A DNA stretch of 64,000 nucleotides from Anolis carolinensis (lineage: Eukaryota), in contig NC_085841.1 in NCBI RefSeq assembly GCF_035594765.1, positions 243,804,689-243,868,688 of the forward strand, in the 5' to 3' direction. Position 1 is the stretch's first letter; every line of letters begins with the position of its first letter. Below the pieces are notes generated by a model, which ran no database searches, was not told the DNA's origin, and saw only the letters and a program-made list of their open reading frames with translations. Made by a program: the position numbers and the translations under genes. Below, piece after piece: positions 31,001 through 64,000 of this stretch.

Positions 31001-34000
31001 GGGGCAGGGTGGCAAATCAACAGCATTCCAATATGAAGAACTTTTCTTCAGAAATTGAACACTTGACTTACTTCACACCTTCTCTCTGAAATGGCATGAG
31101 GCTATTCACAACATGAGGCTCTACTTCTGAAAGGTCTGCTTCAGGGACATCTGCAGCTTTCAAGACAGACTTCCCAAACTGAGAGGCAAAAACTTGTACT
31201 ACAGGCTTAGGCAGGGGCTCCAACTCCACTTCTGGAAGGAACTTTACCATTTGAACTGTAAGAAACATTCACAAAATAAATGCATGTCCTTAGAATTATC
31301 TCTAAGTGACATTCAGTCATGAACATGAATTAGAATACAAAGAAAACAGCTTGATTCGTGGATCAGTCTCATGGGCATGTTTAAATACATTATCATTCTT
31401 AAGCTTTCAAGTTAAAAGAAACAACCCTAATAGTGAGCTTATGAAAAAAAGCAAAGATATGTATGCAAGTAAATGGGTGTGAACAAACAAACCATGCCAC
31501 TTTCTATACATTTAAAAACTATCTTAAAAAAAATAAAATGTGAAAAACTTGCTTGTTTTATTAATTCCTAGACTGCTGAGTTCTAAGCACTGTGTGACAT
31601 TTCCTTAGCACTGCCTTCTCTGAGATTAAATTTAGAAAGTAGAACTTTATTGAGAANNNNNNNNNNNNNNNNNNNNNNNNNNNNNNNNNNNNNNNNNNNN
31701 NNNNNNNNNNNNNNNNNNNNNNNNNNNNNNNNNNNNNNNNNNNNNNNNNNNNNNNNNNNNNNNNNNNNNNNNNNNNNNNNNNNNNNNNNNNNNNNNNAAT
31801 AAAAAAATTACTAATTCACTCCAGAAAGGTAAAATATGTCGACTCTGGATGAAACAAAGTTAATCAACTCGTAGTTTATCCTGATACATCAAACTTCCAC
31901 TGCAATTAACTGGGATAAATAAAACAAAACTCTCCACAACCCTGTAAAATATGAGTTAGAACACAATTCTGATAGTGAAAATGTACTTGAAAGTTCACAT
32001 TTGCACTCACTTAATTTATTATAACTGCTGGGTATTGCTCACAAACTAAACATTGATTATTTTAATTTTTTTACCTCTAGATGGAAGGCAGTTTAAACCT
32101 ATGCTACATCACAAGATCTTTTGCAATGAAAACATATCAATATTATATGGAAGGATTTCTATCTGTACTTGTATGACAGGTTGTTCCATATGTACCGTAT
32201 TACTTCATCTGTGCTTCTCATTGTAGGAGCTGCTCTCCTACCCTGTTATTATGCTCAGAAAGTTGCCTGCTAGAATTATCGACTCATGAGCTGCAGCAAT
32301 TACACAATTGTTACAGTTCTGAGGACAAGTTTCAAAAATTAGATGTCACAGTAGCTTGAGTGATTCATCAAAAAGGCTTCTTTCCCCCGTTTTCTTGTCC
32401 TCGGATGACCTTTTCTCTGAAGACAATTGAGTGACTAAACTTGGTAAAATGATGCTAGAGAAAGTTTCAGAGCCCTTCTAGAAAAGAAATGTTCAAGACT
32501 CCTCATTAGAAGACTGCAAAATACAAAATATGGTTTTACTAAGGCAGATACAATGGGATCAAGCTTCCACACTCCTATCACAAGTATAGTACACTTAATT
32601 CCCCCATTTGGTGCATCAGCTGGAACAACGTGCATCATTCTGGAAGAAACTCTACATAGCTTCTCAGGAGAGGGAGCAAGCAAAGGTTGGGTGGGAGTTG
32701 GATTTAGTCTTTCTTGATCTCCTCCTTCAAAACATGCTGGGAAGTGTGAGGTTTTCCAGATGTTGTCAGACTGCAAGTCTCACCAGCCACTGCGAAAGCC
32801 AATTGTGATAATGGCAGCTACAATTCAGTAACAGTGGAAGGGCTGCACACTCCCTAGAACAATGTTCCTGAAGAGCTGCTTTCCCATTTTTGTAGCCAGT
32901 CCATAAAGAAACAGAGTCTTTGTATGAACCATATGCCTTCTGTAAATCCAAAATTATTTTAGGGTGATACACAACTTCCCATCAATACAAACCGTTGAGG
33001 CAAGTGCCAAAAGTACCGGCACTATAAATGTTTACATACATCTGAATAATATTTGGCCAATATATCCCACTTATACAACTACAGGAGAAACATGTTTGTC
33101 TTCTAGTCTAACAGATGCAACTATTTCTACTATTATATGTTATATGTTATGATCAGACTGTCCAGAAATAGGCATTTTCATCTTTTACATAGACAACCTT
33201 GGCATATTATTATAGGACTCACACTGGAGAAACAGTGGGATATAAATTAAATTATAGCACAATATTGTAAGGAAGTGGAACCCATGAGCTTTTATCTGCT
33301 TTATAAAGCTACAGAAGAAGCAAAGGTCATCACAGCTTTAGCCACCTCTAAGTTAAGAAATAAGTCTTATAAACTAAGCTTGAGTGAAGACCTAATCTCT
33401 CAAGAGCTTGCAAAGAAGTAGTTTCTTACTTAGTTCTAGGTAGTCTTCTAGCAGGAAACTCCATTTTCTGGTCTTCATATCTGAAAGAAGTCATAACAAA
33501 GAACTGCACAGGTTAGAAACACAGCTTTCTAACATTTCATAGCTCCAACTACACTGAAAATGTATTGCACTCTAAGAATCATTCGAAATAAATAGTAATT
33601 TCATTTATGAGTCAGCCTATAGCTACATCTCTCAGGGTAACTCATAACAAGACAAGACAAGAAAATCAAGAATGAATACACACACAGACACATTAAAATA
33701 AAAACAGAAATAAAAACAAAACTATTCCAAGTAGAATATGTATTTCAAAACAGAAAAAAGAATGGCAGCTGTCACAGGGCAGCTTTCAAATTATATAAAA
33801 GGCCTGAAAAAAATAAAGTCTCAGTTTAATAGAGATCCTACTAAGAACATTCCATATTTGGAGATCAGGGCTCCCCAAGTGGTTTTCAATTTGAATGCAA
33901 GGTTAAAAGTCTTGTGATATTACAAACTGCAACTACAAATTGCACAAGGCATCATGTAGGATCTAAGCCTTATCCTAAGTAGTCATGACTAACAAACCTT

Positions 34001-37200: not shown

Positions 37201-40166
37201 TCCTGCCAGAGGAGTCAAAGTCACAGAAGGAAGTTGCTCTACTTCTTCCACTAGAAACAAAAAGAGGATTGGAAAGGGAAAAAATGGATAACAAGGGTAA
37301 AAATCTATCAACTCCCTTGGGGACAGAAAAGGAAATAGAACAAAGGATACCGAGCGATACCTGTGATGGATGCCCAGAAGATACAGCTTTAGCTCTTACT
37401 GTGGCCATTCCTAACTAAATGAAATCTACACCTTTGGAGGATAAAGATTTGTAGCATTCATAACTTTTGGTATTTCTTTCTTTATATAAAACCCATTTTG
37501 TTAAAGAAAAAACTCATACCTAGATACTCACTCCCTGTCACAAACCCACCAACTGATACAGAAATCTTTAAATGATTTTAAAAATCATTTTAAGATGTAG
37601 TTTTTTCAAGTCTTATATACCTGCACTCTAGTTTCCAAATACCAAACCTTTTTCAGGCCATTCGTTAAGCAAATTATATTTTTTAGAGATCATTTAGATT
37701 CTAATTTAAAATTCTGTGCAAAGACATCATGCAGCTATAGGATTCCCAAACATTTCTAATTTAACTGACTACTTACTGAGAGGGCTGTAGTCTTCAAGAC
37801 TGAAATTCCACATTTTTGTTATAGGATCTGAAGTAGAAGATAATTTGGAATTTAATTTTGCATTCAACATTGTATTAATATGTTCAGGCACTTGCACAAG
37901 AAATTCTTACAGGAACATGGCTCATTTGATCATGCAGAATATGCTGTCATATAACTGCTAACATGTCTCCCTTCTTTGTTTACTCTTGGATGGAAAGAGA
38001 GGAACTACCACTGCTTACTACATCAGAGGTTGGGGAATAAAAAATGTGGGAATAAGAGTATGCAGGTTAATGTACCCTTCTGGTAATTTTTGTGTGTGTG
38101 TGTGTGTGAGGAACGACTTGAGAAACTGAAAGTCTCTTCTGGTGTGAGAGAACTGGCTGTCTGCAAGAATATTGCCCCAGGGGACGCTTAGATGTTTGAT
38201 GTTTTACCATCCCTGTGGAAGGCTTCTCTCATGTCCCCACATGGGGAGCTGGAGCTGACAGAGCGAGCTCATCTGTGCTCTCCCCGGATTCGAACCGGCA
38301 TCCTTCAAGTCAGCAACCCAACCTTCAAGTTAATAGTCCTGCTGGCACAAAGGTTTAACCTATTGCGCCACCGGGAGCTCCTGGTAATGACCACATTAAA
38401 ATGACTGACTTATTTCTAAGGCCCATTCTACACTGCCATATAATCCTGATTATCAAAGCAAATACTCCACATTATCTGTTTTAAACTGAGCAGATAATCT
38501 GGATTTGATATGGCAGTGCAGAAGGGGCCTTAGATCAAAAAAGTTATCAGCATCTCATCCCGGAGAGCACCAATGATAGATTGTAAACCTGAGGTAGGGA
38601 ACTGTCAAATTAACCAATTATAGCCATTTTGAGAACCTTTATGGCTGAAAAGCAAGATATAAATACTGTAATATTGTATTTATAATACTATGAATAAGTG
38701 AAATAGTTTTAGAATTACTGAGAAATTAAGAATAGACTCTCTCAGAGGCTCTGAGAATTTCACTATGCTCGCCATCACCTCCAGAGATTACACTGGAAAT
38801 ACACAAACCCCTGATCTCATATTCCCACACAATTTACTGTTTGTTTAGGTTCTGCATGTTTATGAGGATTGGATCATTACACTATGATGTCATTTCCTAA
38901 TTGGGTCTATAAATGTCATTTCCTAATTGGGTTTATCATAAAAACATATTAAAAGTTTATTAAACAGCAAAAACTTTATTTTTGAGGGACATCCTGCAGA
39001 ATATTTTGTCATAGTATTTCCAATGAATAGCTCATAGAGTCTCAACCAATTCAACATAGGTTGTAGCAGCCGCAAAGACAAAGTTTTTAAGATATAACAA
39101 CTACTTTCAAAGCAAGGACCGCACAATTAAACAGGAAAGAACACTTTCAACCAGGAACAGATTTTTTTTTCAAATTTTGTTAGTGTTATTTTTATAAAAG
39201 ACAATTAAGCTGCAAACAGATCTGTATTGTCTGCACAAGAAACAAACAACCATTATGTACCTTACCATAATTTTTACTGGGTAGACTTCGGAACATTTCA
39301 ATGAGTTCCTTATTGTATCCTATCTCAACCCGGAATCGGTCTTCAGAGTGCTTCACACACTTCCCTCTAAGGGCACTGTGTTTTTTGATTTGAACAGGAA
39401 TTTCAGATGGGTTACTTGTACCTCCAGAAACAAGCAATTTGGGTTCTTTTCCCGCTTTTATAGGAACAGAAGTATTTTTTGTACCGTAAAACTGCAATGT
39501 GTTACTACCTTCTTTTTTGGCACAGAGTTCAGAGGTTAGGTTTGTGGCAATTGCCAGCATTTCACAGTCATCCAAAGCTGTGTTGCTGGTGGCTCGTGGT
39601 GCCATATGTTTAACATCAGCATGGCCACTGATTGATTTGCCCTGAGTTTGTAAGGTTTTAATATTGTGAGGGTTCCAATTAACATCTTGTCTGGATGGAT
39701 ATTGGACCACTGGGCAAAATTTAGACTGCAACGAGCGAGCATTAAATTGGATTGGTTGACCTTGTTCTTGTGCTCTCAGATTAGGTGAGTGCCAAGGAGG
39801 GTGACTCAGAGAGTTTTGCACCACTTGGGAAGGCTGTTTCATGTGGACCAACTGTCTGCTGGAACACTGTGATGAATCCACCTCACAGGGTCCGTGCAAA
39901 ATGTGACTGTGTGGCATTTGAGGATCCTTCTGCACAACATGGTTGCTGGAGACCTGGAGATGATGGCTGCTGGGGCTGGCATGATGGTTTTCCTTCTTCA
40001 AAGGCTGCTGCAGGTTTCTTTGACAGCTATGGAAACTCTGCAGGTCTGTCTGCTTCTTAGCAACGCTGCCCTGCTGAGCTGCCAGTCGTTCTGCCCTTCT
40101 TGCCAAAGCCTTCTGACGGTTCTCCTCTATCTTTCTTTTCTGTTCTTCTGTAAGTCCAGCTGACAT
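2916..40166 (-). CDS. SMARCAL1: SMARCAL1 (HARP annealing helicase, SNF2 family), spliced CDS of 14 exons, 3'-incomplete in this window
   Basis: Exons 39266-40166, 37777-37827, 36990-37250, 33430-33480, 31072-31255, 29380-29530, 27992-28150, 23301-23366, 11921-12061, 7830-8048, 5187-5257, 4562-4664, 3536-3718 and 2916-3016 join in frame through GT-AG introns. Motifs: [20 protein letters not shown], two HARP domains, [29 protein letters not shown]. The last exon ends in phase 2 with no stop codon. Confidence 0.97.
3536..3718 (-). CDS. SMARCAL1: SMARCAL1 exon (motif V)
   Basis: [20 protein letters not shown]...[28 protein letters not shown]; 183 nt. Confidence 0.97.
4562..4664 (-). CDS. SMARCAL1: SMARCAL1 exon (motif IV)
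   Basis: [34 protein letters not shown]; 103 nt. Confidence 0.96.
5187..5257 (-). CDS. SMARCAL1: SMARCAL1 71-nt exon, not in the ORF track
   Basis: tgcag|AAA CAA GAA... = [23 protein letters not shown]; donor AT|GTAAGA. Confidence 0.93.
6951..7266. mobile_element. Tc1/mariner (Tigger/pogo-like) MITE
   Basis: TIR CAGTAGAGTCTCACTTATCCAA ... TTGGATAAGTGAGACTCTACTG with TA duplications; multicopy in this window. Confidence 0.9.
7830..8048 (-). CDS. SMARCAL1: SMARCAL1 exon (inter-lobe linker)
   Basis: [43 protein letters not shown]...GYKS; 219 nt. Confidence 0.96.
9850..9975 (+). mobile_element. CR1 LINE 3' end fragment
   Basis: GGATGGCCCGTGAGGTCTCTTCCAACTCTACGATTCTATGA, the typical CR1 3' terminal motif. 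Confidence 0.7.
10618..10887 (+). mobile_element. Sauria SINE (internally deleted)
   Basis: tRNA-like head, (ACCTTT)n tail, 14-bp TSD TAACTACTGATACA at 10604-10617 and 10888-10901. Confidence 0.9.
11020..11315 (+). mobile_element. Sauria SINE (5'-truncated)
   Basis: Same body as the 10618 copy, B-box GTTCGAATC, ACCTTT-type tail. Confidence 0.85.
11921..12061 (-). CDS. SMARCAL1: SMARCAL1 exon (motif III)
   Basis: [47 protein letters not shown]; 141 nt; preceded by an 11.2 kb intron. Confidence 0.96.
12960..13700 (-). mobile_element. Highly degraded Penelope-like element (GIY-YIG remnant) hosting the hAT MITE
   Basis: Minus-strand translation of about 13500-13670 gives SPNVI...CQ...FYAGE...[12 protein letters not shown], resembling the Penelope GIY-YIG region; many stops. 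Confidence 0.4.
13101..13230. mobile_element. hAT MITE
   Basis: TIRs CGGTGATTCTCAACCTGTGGGTCC / GGACCCACAGGTTGAGAATCACTG; 8-bp TSD GGTTAAAG/GGTTAAAA. Confidence 0.85.
14797..14850. repeat. (GA)n microsatellite
   Basis: Perfect dinucleotide run of about 27 units; it explains the poly-ER/SL ORFs in the track. Confidence 0.98.
19960..21800 (+). mobile_element. L2-clade LINE, degraded RT region and 3' end
   Basis: Fragmented frames give [58 protein letters not shown] and [12 protein letters not shown]; many frameshifts. Confidence 0.9.
21877..22142 (+). mobile_element. tRNA-derived SINE (second family)
   Basis: A-box-like head, B-box GTTCGAATC, A-rich tail, 11-bp TSD CTCTTGTTTTA at 21866-21876 and 22143-22153. 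Confidence 0.85.
23301..23366 (-). CDS. SMARCAL1: SMARCAL1 66-nt exon (Walker B DESH), not in the ORF track
   Basis: ttcag|GAT GAA TCA CAT... = [22 protein letters not shown]; donor AAA|GTGAGT. Confidence 0.96.
24925..25405 (+). mobile_element. CR1 3' fragment split by a minus-strand LINE/SINE tail with (AAT)n
   Basis: GGTGGAGTCTCTTTCTCTGGAAGTTTTTAAGAAGAGGCTAGAT ... GATGGCTATT ... GGTCTCTTCCAACTCT; insert at about 25022-25310. Confidence 0.7.
25971..26303 (+). mobile_element. Full-length Sauria SINE
   Basis: 15-bp TSD TTATTGTATTTGAAA at 25956-25970 and 26304-26318; (ACCTTT)3 tail. Confidence 0.92.
27992..28150 (-). CDS. SMARCAL1: SMARCAL1 exon
   Basis: [53 protein letters not shown]; 159 nt; phase 0-0. 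Confidence 0.95.
29380..29530 (-). CDS. SMARCAL1: SMARCAL1 exon (Walker A, motifs I/Ia)
   Basis: [50 protein letters not shown]; 151 nt. Confidence 0.97.
29713..30052. mobile_element. Tigger/pogo-like MITE
   Basis: Same TIRs and TA TSD as the 6951 copy. Confidence 0.9.
30150..30360 (+). mobile_element. 5S rRNA-derived SINE, degraded
   Basis: ATCTTGTAAGCTAAGCAGAGT...CTGGATAGTGCTTGGGTGGAAAACAGCC resembles the 5S internal control region and is followed by a non-5S body. Confidence 0.7.
31072..31255 (-). CDS. SMARCAL1: SMARCAL1 exon
   Basis: [26 protein letters not shown]...[12 protein letters not shown]; 184 nt; tacag| and AA|GTAAGT. Confidence 0.95.
31657..31797. other. Assembly gap (141 N)
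   Basis: Run of N inside an intron; the flanking exon phases match, so no coding exon is needed here. Confidence 0.99.
33430..33480 (-). CDS. SMARCAL1: SMARCAL1 51-nt exon (end of HARP2), not in the ORF track
   Basis: ctttcag|AT ATG AAG ACC AGA AAA TGG... = [17 protein letters not shown]; donor A|GTAAGA; paralogous to the 37777-37827 exon. Confidence 0.93.
34190..34218. repeat. (GT)n microsatellite
   Basis: Perfect dinucleotide run. Confidence 0.95.
34926..35072. mobile_element. PIF/Harbinger-like MITE (related copies at about 38420-38530, 48365-48497, 49683-52073, 54835-55020, 56098-56250)
   Basis: TIR GGCCCTTCCAC(AC)AGC ... GCTGTGTGGAAGGGGC with TWA-like flanks. Confidence 0.75.
36119..36783. 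mobile_element. Non-autonomous Tigger-like DNA transposon
   Basis: Ends CAGGCAGTGCCC ... GAGACAGCCTG; reverse-orientation relative of 41982-43359. Confidence 0.65.
36990..37250 (-). CDS. SMARCAL1: SMARCAL1 exon (HARP linker and HARP2)
   Basis: (M)[14 protein letters not shown]...[35 protein letters not shown]; tttctag| and G|GTAAGT; 261 nt. Confidence 0.94.
37777..37827 (-). CDS. SMARCAL1: SMARCAL1 51-nt exon (end of HARP1), not in the ORF track
   Basis: ttcag|AT CCT ATA ACA AAA ATG TGG AAT TTC... = [17 protein letters not shown]; donor A|GTAAGT; phase 1-1. Confidence 0.93.
38088..38380 (-). mobile_element. tRNA-derived SINE (family of the 21877 copy)
   Basis: Reverse-complement similarity to 21877-22142; TSD CTGGTAAT at 38080-38087 and 38381-38388. 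Confidence 0.85.
38880..39185. mobile_element. Possible non-autonomous Chapaev3-like DNA transposon
   Basis: TTA|CACTA ... TAGTG|TTA: CAC/GTG termini with a 3-bp TWA duplication. Confidence 0.45.
39266..40166 (-). CDS. SMARCAL1: SMARCAL1 first coding exon: RPA32-binding helix, low-complexity linker, start of HARP1
   Basis: [28 protein letters not shown]...[34 protein letters not shown]. Donor G|GTAAGG at 39266/39265. Acceptor TTTTTTCTTTGCGATTATATAG puts the exon start at 40191, giving 25 nt of 5' UTR. Confidence 0.95.
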
Positions 40167-55447: not shown

Positions 55448-56859
55448 TCTATCCATCTATATACCGTATATAAAAATATATAATGTGGCACTTTATTATG
55501 GAGTAAACAGCAAAACTACTGAACCCAATCACACCAAATTTGGCCACAAAAGTCAGTCATCCAAGGTATGTTTTTCAATCAAAAAATTCTAGAAAAATAA
55601 AGTCCAAATTAGAGGACAAAGAAGAGCCATTGTCATACCACCAGAAGACTCTCACCTGCTGCCCTGTCCCTTTAAGGTTCTAAGGGGGCGGAGCTTAGCC
55701 TCAGCTCCTGCCAGCTTGGAAATGGCAGTTATTTTTGTCAGTTAGGATTTGTCAGTTAGTGTGGCCCTGGCTGGAAGAAAGCATAGAAAGCTAGAAGGAG
55801 CACAGAAATTCACGTCATGTCGGATCTGTATTAACTGAAGTCATGTCTGAATTGTATTAATTCAATTCACATCAGAATTGTATGCAAATTGTATTAAAAA
55901 GCCATATAAGACAGTGATACATAAAGTCATGTAGAATCCAGTCATGTCAGGACTTTATACTGTGTGGCAATAACCATCCAGAACTGAATAGATTTCAAAG
56001 ATTTCCTTTCTTCACAGAGATTTGATTTCCCAAATACAGTCTCTGATCTGTCCTTTGTGCTATGGTGCCTTCCAGTTCATTTAGTTAAACGCCTTTAGGC
56101 CCTGCCCCCACACACAGCTATATAACCCCGAATGCCAAGGCACATAACCCACAGTATCAGTTTTGAACTGGACTACCTTGAGTCCACACTGCCATATAAT
56201 CCAGTTCAATATGGATTTTATATACAGTAGTTGTGTAGAAGGGCCCTCATATAATCCAGTTCTAATCAGATTATAAATGTAATATATAAAATTACTGTGG
56301 TATAATAAAACATAACATTTAAAAACTCTAAAATCAGGACAGTAAATAAAGAACAATGCTCAGAAGACAGGGGAATTCCAGACAGGAAACACGGCCAGCT
56401 AACACGGATTGATTGAGGGTGCTTTCCAGGTCGCCAAACAAGAATTCCCCTAACTATAACACAGCCAGGTATTGAAGCTGCAAGGCTATTCAGTGCAATT
56501 CAACCAGACCAACAAAGGATTAACCTTGGTAGAAGATGGCCAGGCTTTGAAGCAGCGATACTACTCTGTACTATTGAATCTGACCAACCAAAGATTCCCC
56601 TAGGTAGCAAGCAGCCAGGCTTTGAAGTTGTGAGCCTATTCATTGCAATTCTAGCAGCCCAAAAAACCATTCCCCTAGAACGCAAGTACCCAGCCTTCCA
56701 AGTAGCAAACCTATTCCATTGCATTCCAGCTCACCAAACAAGGATTCCCAAAAGAAGAAAACAGCCAGGCTTTGAGGCTGCAAGGCTATTCACTGCTATT
56801 CTACCTGGCCAACAAATGATTCCCATAAGCTGCAGCAACGCGTGGCTGAGCACAGCTAG
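55448..56859 (+). mobile_element. Second non-autonomous Helitron with an internal 75-bp tandem repeat
   Basis: A|TCTATCCATCTATATA start (TC at 55448 or 55456); end GCTGCAGCAACGCGTGGCTGAGCACAGCTAG matches the 3' end of the 53336 element. Confidence 0.78.
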
Positions 56860-59402: not shown

Positions 59403-59928
59403 AGATTTTAAATAACAGATTCAGTCCTCTTGCTTTTAATTGTAGTACTTTGTTCATTAATTTCCTCTGGATATAACATATTTCTTTCTACAAAATAAAG
59501 AAAATAATAAAAAGAAGAAAATAAAACTGCAATACCAGTATGAGAATGGAAAATAAGCCTCTCTAGTAGTACTTCAAATAACCTGTGAGATCCAAGCTGC
59601 TGAAGCCTATTCTAAAACTAGATCCAGCACCTTCCAAGTTCAAACTAAATTCTGGAGCAGATTCACCTCCAACTTGATATTGGATACCCTGGGGGGAAAA
59701 GTCCCAGTTGCATTGGGAAATCAGCGAGGATGTGCAGGGACTTAAACCCCGTCCTGGAAGCCAGGAGCGCCAACCACCAGCATCTTTTGCTTTTTTCTGT
59801 CAATGCGAGAAGGAGAAAAGCAAAACCTGAGAGAACACAAGGGTGTTCTCTCAGGAAAAGAAAACCTTTCAGATCAATTCACTTCTAATGACCTAAAAGA
59901 GGCTTAGGTTCAGGTCCAACTTCCTTAT

Positions 59929-60210
59929 CTGGGGTCGTTTCCCTCAAGACCCTTCCACCAAAGCAGAGTTAAGGTCCCTTTCTTTAGGCACCACTCTCTC
60001 TGGGGTTATTTGCTCTCCAGACCCTTCCACCAAAGCAGAGTTAAGGCACCTTTCCAAAGGCACCACTCGCTCTGGGTTCATTTGCCCTCAAGACCCTTAC
60101 ACTGAAGCAAAGTTAAGGAACCTTTCTTAAGGCACCACTCTCTCTGGGGTCGTTTGCTCTCAGGACTTTTCCACTGAAGCAGAGTTAAAGCATCTTCCTA
60201 AAGGCACCTC
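59929..60210. repeat. 71-72 bp tandem repeat, about 4 units
   Basis: CTGGG-anchored units start at 59929, 60000, 60072 and 60144. Confidence 0.93.
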
Positions 60211-60460
60211 CAAGTGTGGCTATTTTCGTGCTGATAGCCATAAAAAACAATTGAAAGAAGAGCCTCACAAGTTCCCCTGTTATCGCCAATGGGTCCGATC
60301 TTCCAGAAACATAAATGGAACTTCCGGCTGCAGGATCATGGAGTAGCATTTTCCTGCTCCCAGTTTCGGGAATTTCCTGGTAAACTGATATTTTCACTGG
60401 TCAGGGAGTTTCTTGTCTGATCTGTGAAAAATAATCTCAAAACACCCCATCTTCATCCCT

Positions 60461-61684
60461 AAACCAGGAATCCCATAGAAATAATCAGAAGAATACATTT
60501 CATATGGAGAAAGAGGAATGGAATGTACTTACCGACATGAATTCTGTTGCTGGGGGTAAATGTCAGGTTATTATAGCATAACTGTTTAAAATAGAAAAGG
60601 AACCCTATAGAAATAATCAGAATAATAGATTTCAATATGGATAAAGAGGAATGGAATGTACTTACCAACATGAATTCTGTTGCTGAGGGTAAATATAAGC
60701 TCTTCTTTCAATCGTTTTTTATGGCTATCAGCACAAAAATAGCCACACTTGGAGGTGCCTTTAGAAAGATGCTTTAACTCTGCTTCAGTGGAAAAGTCCT
60801 GAGAGCAAATGGCCCCAGAGAAAGTGGTGCCTTAAGAAAGGTGCCTTAACTTTGCTTCAGTGCAAGGGTCTTGAGGGCAAATGAAAGAGGAATGGAATGT
60901 ACTTACCGACATGAATTCTGTTGCTGAGGGTAAATATAAGGTATTAGAGCACAACTGTTTAAAACATAGGAAAGGAACCCCATAGAAACAAACAGAAGAA
61001 TACATTTCTATGTAGAGCAAGAGGAATGAAGAATACTTACATGACTTCTGTGACTGAGGGTAAATATCAGGCTATTAGAGCACAACTGTTTAAAACATAG
61101 AAAAGGAACCCCATAGAAATAAACAGAAGAATACATTTCTATGTAGAGCAAGAGGAGTGAAGTGTACTTACATGACTTCTGTGACTGAGGGTTAATGTCA
61201 GGTTTTTATAGCATAACTGTTTAAAACATAGAAATGGAACCCCATAGAAATAAACAGAAGAATACATTTCTATGTAGAGCAAGAGGAATGAAGTGTACTT
61301 ACATGACTTCTGTGACTGAGGGTAAATATCAGGCTATTAGAGCACAACTGTTTAAAACAAAGAAATGGAACCCCATAGAAATAAACAGAATAATAGATTT
61401 CAACATGGAGAAAGAGGAATGGAATGTACTTACCGACATGAATTCTGTTCCTGAGGGTAAATATAAAGTATTAGAGCACAACTGTTTAAAACATAGAAAA
61501 GAAACCCCATAGAAATAAACAGAAGAATACATTTCTATGTAGAGCAAGAGGAATGAAGTGTACTTACATGACTTCTGTGACTGAGGGTTAATGTCAGGTT
61601 TTTATAGCATAACTGTTTAAAACATAGAAAAGAAACCCCATAGAACCAAATAGAAGAATACATTTATATGTGGAACAAGAGGAG

Positions 61685-61685
<1 letters not shown>
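60461..61685. repeat. 131-134 bp tandem repeat, about 8 units, with one more unit at about 62820-62912
   Basis: GTTTAAAA anchors at 60584, 60957, 61088, 61219, 61350, 61484 and 61615; interrupted at 60698-60885 and by the Dong element. Confidence 0.95.
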
Positions 61686-61738
<53 letters not shown>

Positions 61739-61742
61739 TAAT

Positions 61743-62595
61743 AAGCAGAAAACTGGCAAAAGAAGGTTCTCCATGGACAGTTCCTACGAAAAATCCAGAG
61801 TCAAATTGACAAAGAAAGAAAATGGCTGTGGCTCACAAACTGAACTTTGAAAAAGGAGAAAGAGGGCCTGATTCTGGCAGCCCAAGAATAAGCCATTAGA
61901 ACCAATGCCATCAAAGCCAAAATTGAAAAGTCGACAACAGACCCCAAATGTAGACTCTGCAAGGAAGCAGATGAAACAATAGATCACATCCTCAGCTGCT
62001 GCAAGTAGATCGCACATACAGACTACAAGCAGAGGCCTAACACCATTGCTCAAATAATTCATTGGAACTTGTGCCACAAATACCATCTGCTTGCGACAAA
62101 GAGCTGGTGGGATCACAAGCCAGAAAAAGTTACAGAGAATGAGCATGTCAAGCTACTCTGGGACTTCCGAATTCAGACAGACAGGGTTTTGGATCACAAT
62201 ACTCCTGACCTCACGATCGTGCTAAAAGACAAAGTATGTATTGTTGATGTCGCAATCCCAGGTGATGGCAGAATTGAGGAGAAACAACTGGAAAAGTTGA
62301 CACGATATGAGGATTTAAAGATTGAACTACAAAGACTCTGGCACAAGCCAGTCAAGGTGGTCCCAGTGGTGATCGGCACACTGGGTGCAGTGCCTAAAGG
62401 CCTTGGCCTACACTTAAACACAATCATCACCGACAAGATTACCATCTGCCAGCTGCAGAAGGCCACCTTACTGGGATCTGAACGCATTATTCGCCGATAC
62501 ATCACACAGTTCTAGACACTTGGGAAGTGTCCGACGTGTGATCCAATTCAACAGCCAGCAGAGTGTCTGCTGTGGACTCATTTTGTTGTGTTTCA
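61743..62595 (+). mobile_element. 5'-truncated R4/Dong-clade LINE (zinc knuckle and restriction-like endonuclease) in a (TAA)n tract
   Basis: CRLC...ETIDHILSCC, LLWDFRIQTDRVLDHNTPDL, VDVAIPGD, EKLTRYEDL, PVVIGTLG, LQKATLLGS; premature stops; (TAA)n on both flanks. Confidence 0.92.
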
Positions 62596-64000
62596 AATAA
62601 TAATAATAATACCTTTAATTATAGACCTCCCTCTCTCCCTGAGGGGTCTCACAGTGGTTTACATTAAAAAAAGGCAAACATTTGATGCATAGTCATTAAA
62701 AACAACAAATCAAAACAATACAGAATAACATCAGTAGAAAATAAAAATACTAATATTTAAATAAAACATGATTACACATAGAGATACGTGTGCCCCGAAA
62801 AAAAGGTGTTTAACGTATGAATGAAATGCACTTACTAACATTACTTCTGTGGCTGAGGGTAAATATCAGGTTATTAGAGCACAACTGCTTAAACCATAGA
62901 AAAAGAAATCCTCCCACAAAAATATTCTCATTTTATAGGTAAAGAACAAAAAAGTGGGCAACCTGTATTTTTGTCCACTGAAATGGCAATGTCTTGAGTT
63001 CCTCCACAGATCTATGAAAGGCAATCCCAAGATACCAGTGTTTCCCCAGCCCTCCCAGTTCCCGCAATTAAAACCAGTAGAAATCCAGACTTATGCAGCA
63101 TCTACAAAGTAGATAAACAAAAACAATGCTCCCCAGGCCCCAAAACAAAGGCCCCAGAACAATTCACAAAAACAAGACCATCACCCAAGACAGCACTTCC
63201 TATTCTAACTGAACCCGCCTGTTAACTGCAGAGTAGCTTTTAAATTCAAAAATGGTTATATATGCAACATTCAAAAAGGGAGAACGTAATAAATCAAAGG
63301 GGGAACTGGAAACTTCATCTATTCAAATAGATCCAAATAGTAGCCATGACTGTGCCATGTGTCAAAACAACTCACTGCACAGATTTTCAAAGATGGGTCT
63401 ACCGAGGGGAGTCGAAGGAGAAGGGATTCAGGAGAGCTTCACAGTTTGGCAGAACAATCCAAAAGAACTACTTTTCCACTGCATACCTATAATTGGTACA
63501 TTTTAATCCATAGTCAAAAATACACTAAAGTAAAACTCTCTTGGATTTAAAAAATCTGGTTGTAGTTGGATCAAAATCATGTCATTTCTGACCATCCTCG
63601 CCTATATCATTAAGATTTGTTTCCCTACTTTCTATCAGTTCCTTTGGAGTTTAAAATAATGGTTTCTTCTCTCTTTTGTAAGTGAATATCTCACTACAGT
63701 TCCTTGAGCTATGATTTACTTTAGTTTCACCAGATTTCCCAACTGTTCCTCTCTTCACTTTTGGAGGAAAATATTTAATGTCCCTTCATCTACCTGTTCC
63801 CCTAATCTCTCTTTCTTTTGTCCTGCCCAAAGCTCTGGCAATGGAGAGAGTGGGAAAAAAACCCCAGTATGGAACCAATAAGACAGCCTCACTTACTGGA
63901 ATGGGCCGGATCCTTCTGCCAGCCGTTGCACATCACAAAAGGACAGAAAATAGTCCCTGGCCATAGTGCTCAATGCATGCAAACATACTAGCTAGGGCTT

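Follow-up and report, generated by a model that had tools for sequence, protein, structure and literature searches.

What kind of gene, if any, carries a tandem array in which each unit looks like a micro-exon followed by its own short intron? We addressed this question for an array on the minus strand of a 64,000-nucleotide stretch of the Anolis carolinensis contig NC_085841.1, hereafter called the window. The original prediction had proposed growth by exon-intron amplification, had left the type of gene open and had tied the array to the neighboring SMARCAL1 gene. Amplification fits the anatomy and the statistics reported below, with splicing itself predicted from the sequence, but the key context proved to be a MALAT1-type triple helix and a mascRNA-like element that lie downstream of the array on the same strand. 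Because of these two elements, we propose that the locus is a single MALAT1-like long noncoding RNA (lncRNA) gene, whose units would be spliced as micro-exons, whose poly(A)-less transcript would be ended by RNase P at the triple helix, and which would grow by exon-intron duplication. On sequence evidence, we give this reading a probability of about 55%.

MALAT1-type 3' module and array of exon-like units

The ends of MALAT1 and MEN-beta combine three features: an internal loop that is rich in U and interrupted by G and C, an A-rich tract that matches it and is encoded in the genome, and a tRNA-like element (PMC7583470). In the window, a match to the mascRNA-menRNA family (Rfam RF01684) scored 58.9 bits against a gathering threshold of 42.5, covered positions 1-56 of the 56-position model and was the sole gathering-level Rfam match in the 64 kb. 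It is preceded by U-rich motif 1 (59864-59856), a perfect 13-bp stem with a 4-nt loop, U-rich motif 2 (59825-59816), a closing stem and a genomic A-rich tract, with a matching GC interruption, that reaches the tRNA-like element. The U-rich internal loop is interrupted by G and C, and the A-rich tract matches the loop in a predicted triple helix. The hairpin fold has an energy of -27.7 kcal/mol (z = -5.62), and none of 200 shuffled sequences was equally stable. No AATAAA or ATTAAA was found between the last acceptor of the array and the predicted cut, the nearest lying at 59440 and 59115, past the tRNA-like element. The module starts about 590 nt and ends 674 nt past the last acceptor, on the array strand, and array and 3' module follow each other in order on one strand inside 3.2 kb. 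Judged by sequence and fold, the presence of a MALAT1-type 3' module at this locus is near certain.

The array itself comprises eight units, each consisting of a CAG, an exon-like piece of 45 to 49 nt and a GTAAGT. All eight candidate exons of the original prediction, with lengths of 49, 45, 48, 45, 45, 45, 48 and 49 nt, were recovered (Table 1), but a ninth unit had been overlooked; it is truncated at its 5' end, keeps an intact donor at 60665 and is followed by an 84-nt spacer. Introns of about 86 nt had been anticipated, and indeed all five spacers between 61568 and 60954 measure exactly 86 nt, but spacers 1 (1,223 nt) and 7 (325 nt) owe their unusual lengths to insertions. Tandem Repeats Finder (TRF) reported a period of 131 with 5.9 copies and 88% matches at 60909-61683. 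A profile of the unit recovered nine units and no further copy in the window, the next match (E = 0.11) falling on the end of the last spacer, which resembles a unit. The array may also be the internal satellite of a transposon, a kind of unit that would be dispersed in many copies through the genome; the 64 kb hold none beyond these nine. Among metagenome contigs, an exact motif of 21 nt from the exon had no match. Since the exon pieces are 77-100% alike between units, the array is, on its sequence, young and partly homogenized. The predicted terminal exon that follows contains the stop of the reading frame described below, one arm of an inverted repeat and a 72-bp tandem repeat.

According to our model, RNA polymerase II would start near a TATA-like box or further upstream, and the 86-nt spacers would be removed as short introns. 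RNase P would then cut before the tRNA-like element and free it, after which the A-rich tract would close the triple helix, as in MALAT1. The predicted RNA would measure about 1.05-1.1 kb, would end in the triple helix rather than in a poly(A) tail and, by analogy with reported anole loci, would be expressed in testis. The array would have expanded by unequal crossing-over from a unit with a 49-nt exon, every copy adding a whole exon plus intron, while mid-exon crossovers would have shuffled two 5' and two 3' haplotypes.

The TATA-like box is weak evidence for the start, about 0.11 such boxes being expected by chance per 80 nt. Avian MALAT1 is reported to start 25-35 bp past its TATA box (PMC10869381). 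A start near 62905 (box at 62937) would leave one two-codon upstream open reading frame. The box sits inside the spacer of a candidate older unit (u0, 63011-62963, minus strand), which has 49 nt between AG and GT and a 78-nt spacer and lies in array register. This candidate scored above 99.6% of 40,570 windows of the same size, and 76 of 2,000 shuffles did as well, with bounds chosen post hoc; it was spotted by eye, was missed by nhmmer and has a donor score of -2.3, and we did not use it as evidence. Further upstream on the minus strand, several sites resemble the consensus and could mark upstream exons: a donor at 63896 that reads GTAAGT, a pair made up of an acceptor at 63834 and a donor at 63793, which would enclose a candidate exon of 41 nt, and one more acceptor at 63101. 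In a 36-nt segment of the minus strand (63230-63195), CAGTTA occurs twice and GGCGGG and GGAAGT once each; we take these to be MYB, GC-box and ETS-like motifs, and the cluster could be a germ-line promoter.

Table 1. Coordinates of the features at the locus and in the rest of the window
Feature	Position	Strand	Basis
TATA-like box; transcription starting 25-35 nt downstream of it would put unit 1 in the first exon	62932..62937	-	
Unit 1 exon, 49 nt, most diverged; ATG at 62841	62836..62884	-	sequence
Spacer (predicted intron) 1, 1,223 nt; unit spacer broken about 17 nt past the donor, donor and acceptor intact	61613..62835	-	
Piece of a non-LTR retrotransposon, decayed and truncated at its 5' end, flanked on either side by TAA runs	61745..62596	+	translation
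Unit 2 exon, 45 nt	61568..61612	-	sequence
Unit 3 exon, 48 nt	61434..61481	-	sequence
Unit 4 exon, 45 nt	61303..61347	-	sequence
Unit 5 exon, 45 nt, same sequence as unit 2	61172..61216	-	sequence
Unit 6 exon, 45 nt, same sequence as unit 4	61041..61085	-	sequence
Unit 7 exon, 48 nt	60907..60954	-	sequence
187-bp inverted copy of 60077-60263, 180/187 identical	60699..60885	.	sequence
Ninth unit (u7b), 5'-truncated, donor 60665 intact	60666..60699	-	sequence, unit profile
Unit 8 exon, 49 nt	60533..60581	-	sequence
Predicted terminal exon, 674 nt (acceptor 60458) or 637 nt (acceptor 60421)	59785..60458	-	
72-bp tandem repeat, 3.9 copies, within the predicted terminal exon	59928..60208	.	TRF
MALAT1-type triple-helix module	59785..59870	-	sequence, fold
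mascRNA/menRNA-type tRNA-like element; 5' end is the predicted RNase P cut	59729..59784	-	Rfam RF01684
SMARCAL1 coding exons	40166-2915	-	mapped from a 980-aa database protein, residues 1-881 in window

Splice signals and history of the array

We scored the splice sites with approximate weight matrices, taking as a yardstick the 13 donors and 13 acceptors of SMARCAL1 mapped in the same window. The donors of units 2-8 scored 4.7-4.8 and that of unit 1 scored 1.0, compared to 1.1-7.8 for SMARCAL1, 5 of whose 13 donors likewise read GTAAGT. The unit acceptors scored 0.7-4.6, compared to 1.0-10.1 for SMARCAL1, with 7 of the 8 in range. For the chance level, pieces of 131 nt taken from elsewhere in the window were joined head to tail and searched for a donor/acceptor pair enclosing an intron of 70-106 nt. 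An equally strong pair arose in 6 of 8,688 cases on the plus strand and in 61 of 8,688 on the minus strand, which includes the real SMARCAL1 sites, that is, in 0.07-0.7%; with loose thresholds, the rate was 5-6%. Therefore, the founding unit was very likely a real exon with its flanks or was selected to become one. Of the 135 columns of the eight units, 46 vary, but the 8 columns of the AG/GTAAGT core are all constant (P = 0.032). In unit 1, which an old insertion separated from the rest, the exon kept 42 of 46 positions relative to units 4 and 6 and the flanks 33 of 47 (P = 0.017). Exons are the same within a type and differ more than introns between types (P = 0.06 and 0.01), a pattern that we set aside as a signal because short conversion tracts mimic it and the pairs were picked post hoc.

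Several observations weigh against a spliced MALAT1-like gene. The units are not statistically independent, so the invariance of the splice core lends splicing modest support, and the conservation of GT and AG alone (4 columns) is not significant (P = 0.18). The exon-versus-flank comparisons of unit 1 are mixed, two of six favoring the exon and four not being significant. Slightly under the SMARCAL1 range fall the donor of unit 1 (1.0) and the acceptor of unit 5 (0.7), and the terminal acceptor at 60458 that had originally been proposed scores -0.7, lower than all 13 SMARCAL1 acceptors; an alternative at 60421 scores 2.6. One unit was destroyed by an inverted duplication, a damage that was tolerated. 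At the 3' end, the mascRNA alignment leaves one base of the acceptor stem unpaired and the helix could accommodate eight U.A-U triples, compared to nine in human MALAT1 (PMC13541005). Finally, MALAT1 and MEN-beta are reported to lack introns (PMC13541005).

Two other roles for the spacers were rejected. None of the seven spacers pairs end to end, as would the whole intron of a mirtron, which folds as one hairpin with its 5' and 3' ends paired; they form merely short internal stems of -5.5 to -16 kcal/mol. A host gene for small nucleolar RNAs or microRNAs was dismissed as well, as Rfam gave no match in the array up to an E value of 5.

The exon lengths and insertions record how the array may have changed. 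Both end units have 49 nt, whereas the 45-nt type lost 4 nt from the end of the exon but retained GTAAGT, and the 48-nt type lost 1 nt. In the middle units, two 5' haplotypes are combined with two 3' haplotypes, the switch falling within the exon, a pattern that on the sequence fits unequal crossing-over. The insert of spacer 1 is a TAA run enclosing a retrotransposon piece on the strand opposite to the array. This piece encodes a CCHC knuckle and a nuclease-like C terminus, has three in-frame stops and lies nearest to the Atlas cluster 'Reverse transcriptase' (0.96); no Pfam family reached the cutoff at 61745-62596. The piece is presumably of the R4/Dong type, an RTE label having been dropped on the basis of its translation. 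A second repeat tail stands beside it near 62600-62650.

Most of spacer 7 and the beginning of the ninth unit are displaced by the inverted copy at 60699-60885. This recent 187-bp inverted duplication brackets unit 8 and the terminal acceptor. Its arms are able to pair at 183 of 187 positions in unspliced RNA, and such pairing in the precursor might give rise to editing or small RNAs or might cause unit 8 to be skipped.

Rival readings and the reading frame

Foremost among the alternatives is a MALAT1-like RNA that stays unspliced. A single exon of 3.1 kb or more would run to the triple helix, the array would be an internal repeat with leftover, unused splice signals of an old exon, and the 187-bp arms would form a long double strand favoring nuclear retention, editing or small-RNA production. 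The near-complete pairing of these arms (183/187) and the weakness of the acceptor at 60458 suit this reading, as do the reported lack of introns in MALAT1 and MEN-beta (PMC13541005) and the reported link of lizard MALAT1-like loci to piRNA production (PMC7344863). It leaves unaccounted for, however, the nine intact GTAAGT donors and eight CAG acceptors on the transcribed strand, which mostly score like real sites, and the invariance of the splice core. We consider it unlikely.

We hold it to be more doubtful that the locus is a silent relic, in which a copied 3' module would lie beside a short array derived from a dead exon, no RNA would be made and the common signals would reflect recent copying of one unit. 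The perfect 13-bp stem and a mascRNA score well over gathering speak against it, and the strand and order of the TATA-like box, the units and the 3' module suit one gene. Nevertheless, a young, partly homogenized array with exon pieces 77-100% alike and two insertions is what a relic could look like, and a MALAT1-like module alone is considered no proof of a gene of the MALAT1 kind (PMC10869381).

The third alternative hinges on the reading frame of the spliced model. An ATG within the last six bases of unit 1 opens a frame that runs through all units and ends in the terminal exon after 131 codons (acceptor 60458) or 138 codons (second acceptor, 60421). The 49-nt outer units, which had been considered a problem for the frame, thus pose none, since the frame opens only at the end of unit 1 and passes through the last unit into the terminal exon. 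The exons of units 2-7 are all multiples of 3 and free of stops in phase 0, as had been noticed for the six central exons, and the frame to the terminal exon survives in 64 of 64 subsets of these units. Such a frame arose in 6.1% of 200,000 column shuffles with the observed indels and in 2.0% of 100,000 with random indels, and the chance that both indels restore a multiple of 3 is 27%. The proportions of synonymous changes between units (1/6, 1/6, 2/8, 1/3 and 1/2, compared to about 20% synonymous sites) revealed no bias, though the changes are few. The earlier caveat still holds: homologous bases are read in one frame in the 45-nt units and in another in the 48-nt units, which speaks against a conserved protein. 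None of 39 word-sharing candidate proteins matched the unspliced unit frames at E values up to 10, and a profile of the unit frame found nothing among 1.84 billion representative proteins at E values up to 0.001; as a control, the same profile detected the product of the spliced model (E = 2e-17). Pfam had nothing for the 82-aa frame of the array.

The peptide is thus without a sign of selection at the sequence level. Because there is no synonymous bias, frames are shifted between types and no protein matches, we infer that the frame reflects either chance or a means of escaping nonsense-mediated decay. Since the middle units are all multiples of 3 and the stop lies in the last exon, the spliced RNA would evade this decay whichever of units 2-7 are skipped.

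Least probable, and improbable by our estimate, is therefore a protein-coding mRNA, that is, a natural spliced mRNA ended by RNase P and a young testis gene born inside an lncRNA family, whose translation, after export, would start from the ATG at 62841 and yield a repeat peptide of 131 aa (138 aa with the second acceptor), with the triple helix replacing the poly(A) tail: the ATG-to-stop frame across all eight units with its stop in the last exon, its low chance rates (6.1% or 2.0%), the restriction of lengths other than multiples of 3 to the two end units, where length is irrelevant, and the reported support of reporter translation by the triple helix (PMC13170383; PMC7583470) are set against the unbiased changes, the type-specific frames, the 27% chance that both indels restore the frame, and the failed protein searches by a profile that does find the model product.

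Class of the locus and known systems

The neighboring gene is SMARCAL1, identified by HARP and SNF2 matches. Its first coding exon is 100% identical to one database protein, 87% to another and 73% to that of Phrynosoma, and on these similarities the window is DNA of an iguanian lizard; the types of repeat that it holds suggest an anole. The array had been placed about 13 kb upstream of SMARCAL1, but the ATG of this gene, at 40166, lies about 20 kb away. A gap of N at 31657-31797 falls inside the SMARCAL1 region. Elsewhere in the window, a 75-bp tandem repeat (56462-56824, 4.8 copies, 68% matches) is open in one plus-strand frame for 163 codons.

MALAT1 orthologues adjoin FRMD8 and SCYL1 (PMC10869381). 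Here, the downstream neighbor is SMARCAL1, and the upstream side ends at the window edge. Because this neighbor is SMARCAL1 of an iguanian lizard, the locus is likely a dispersed MALAT1-like copy of the type named tancRNA (PMC6952434) rather than MALAT1 itself. MALAT1-like modules are reported in dozens of anole transcripts (PMC10869381), anole homologues are also mentioned in PMC6888369, and the anole loci are described as testis-expressed, with RNA that is nuclear in round spermatocytes (PMC12941219). The locus at hand probably belongs to this known class. Zhang et al. reportedly counted 44 MALAT1-like loci in the anole in 2017, and ours is possibly already among those hits. In the literature searched, which did not include that 2017 study (Cell Rep 19:1723, PMC5505346), no MALAT1-like gene was described as having an array of spliced micro-exons.

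The nuclear RNAs from which the MALAT1 3' module is known lack introns, and evidence that it supports translation comes mainly from reporters (PMC7583470, PMC13170383), together with a preprint that reports a micropeptide from mouse Malat1 (10.64898/2026.02.11.705401). A compact gene with eight micro-introns and an open frame before the module would test whether splicing and end formation by RNase P coexist on one transcript. It would also let export and translation of a triple-helix RNA be asked directly and would bear on whether decay surveillance shapes the exon lengths of lncRNAs. As a case of gene growth, the locus may have been caught in progress, with exon-intron copying, mid-exon crossovers, one retrotransposon insertion and one inverted duplication. 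Should it be an unspliced or silent anole copy, it would add one further member to the class described in 2017.

Like the anole MALAT1-like loci, the locus lies in a lizard genome but not at MALAT1 itself, and it has a triple helix and a tRNA-like element; in the available portions of the papers that cite those loci, splicing, a micro-exon array and a reading frame go unmentioned. With the 3' ends of MALAT1 and MEN-beta (NEAT1_2), it has in common the U-rich loop with G and C, the A-rich tract, the mascRNA-type element and the absence of a poly(A) signal before the cut. It differs in that those RNAs are long and intron-less, whereas the predicted RNA is about 1 kb long and multi-exonic, in its eight instead of nine triples, and in its neighbor, SMARCAL1 on the one side seen instead of FRMD8 and SCYL1. 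Tandem genomic duplication is reported to create a functional intron in a single step (Hellsten et al. 2011, PMC3265369), and here too one duplication step makes a donor/acceptor pair. In our case, however, a whole exon plus intron was copied at least eight times in an apparently noncoding gene, and the new sites are predicted ones. Schistosome micro-exon genes (MEGs) and vertebrate SCPP genes contain runs of short phase-0 exons and give rise to polyadenylated mRNAs for secreted proteins. The exons of our array are likewise short, in phase 0 and skippable in frame (64/64 subsets), but unlike those genes the locus displays no sign of selection at the protein level, has no homologue and ends in a triple helix.

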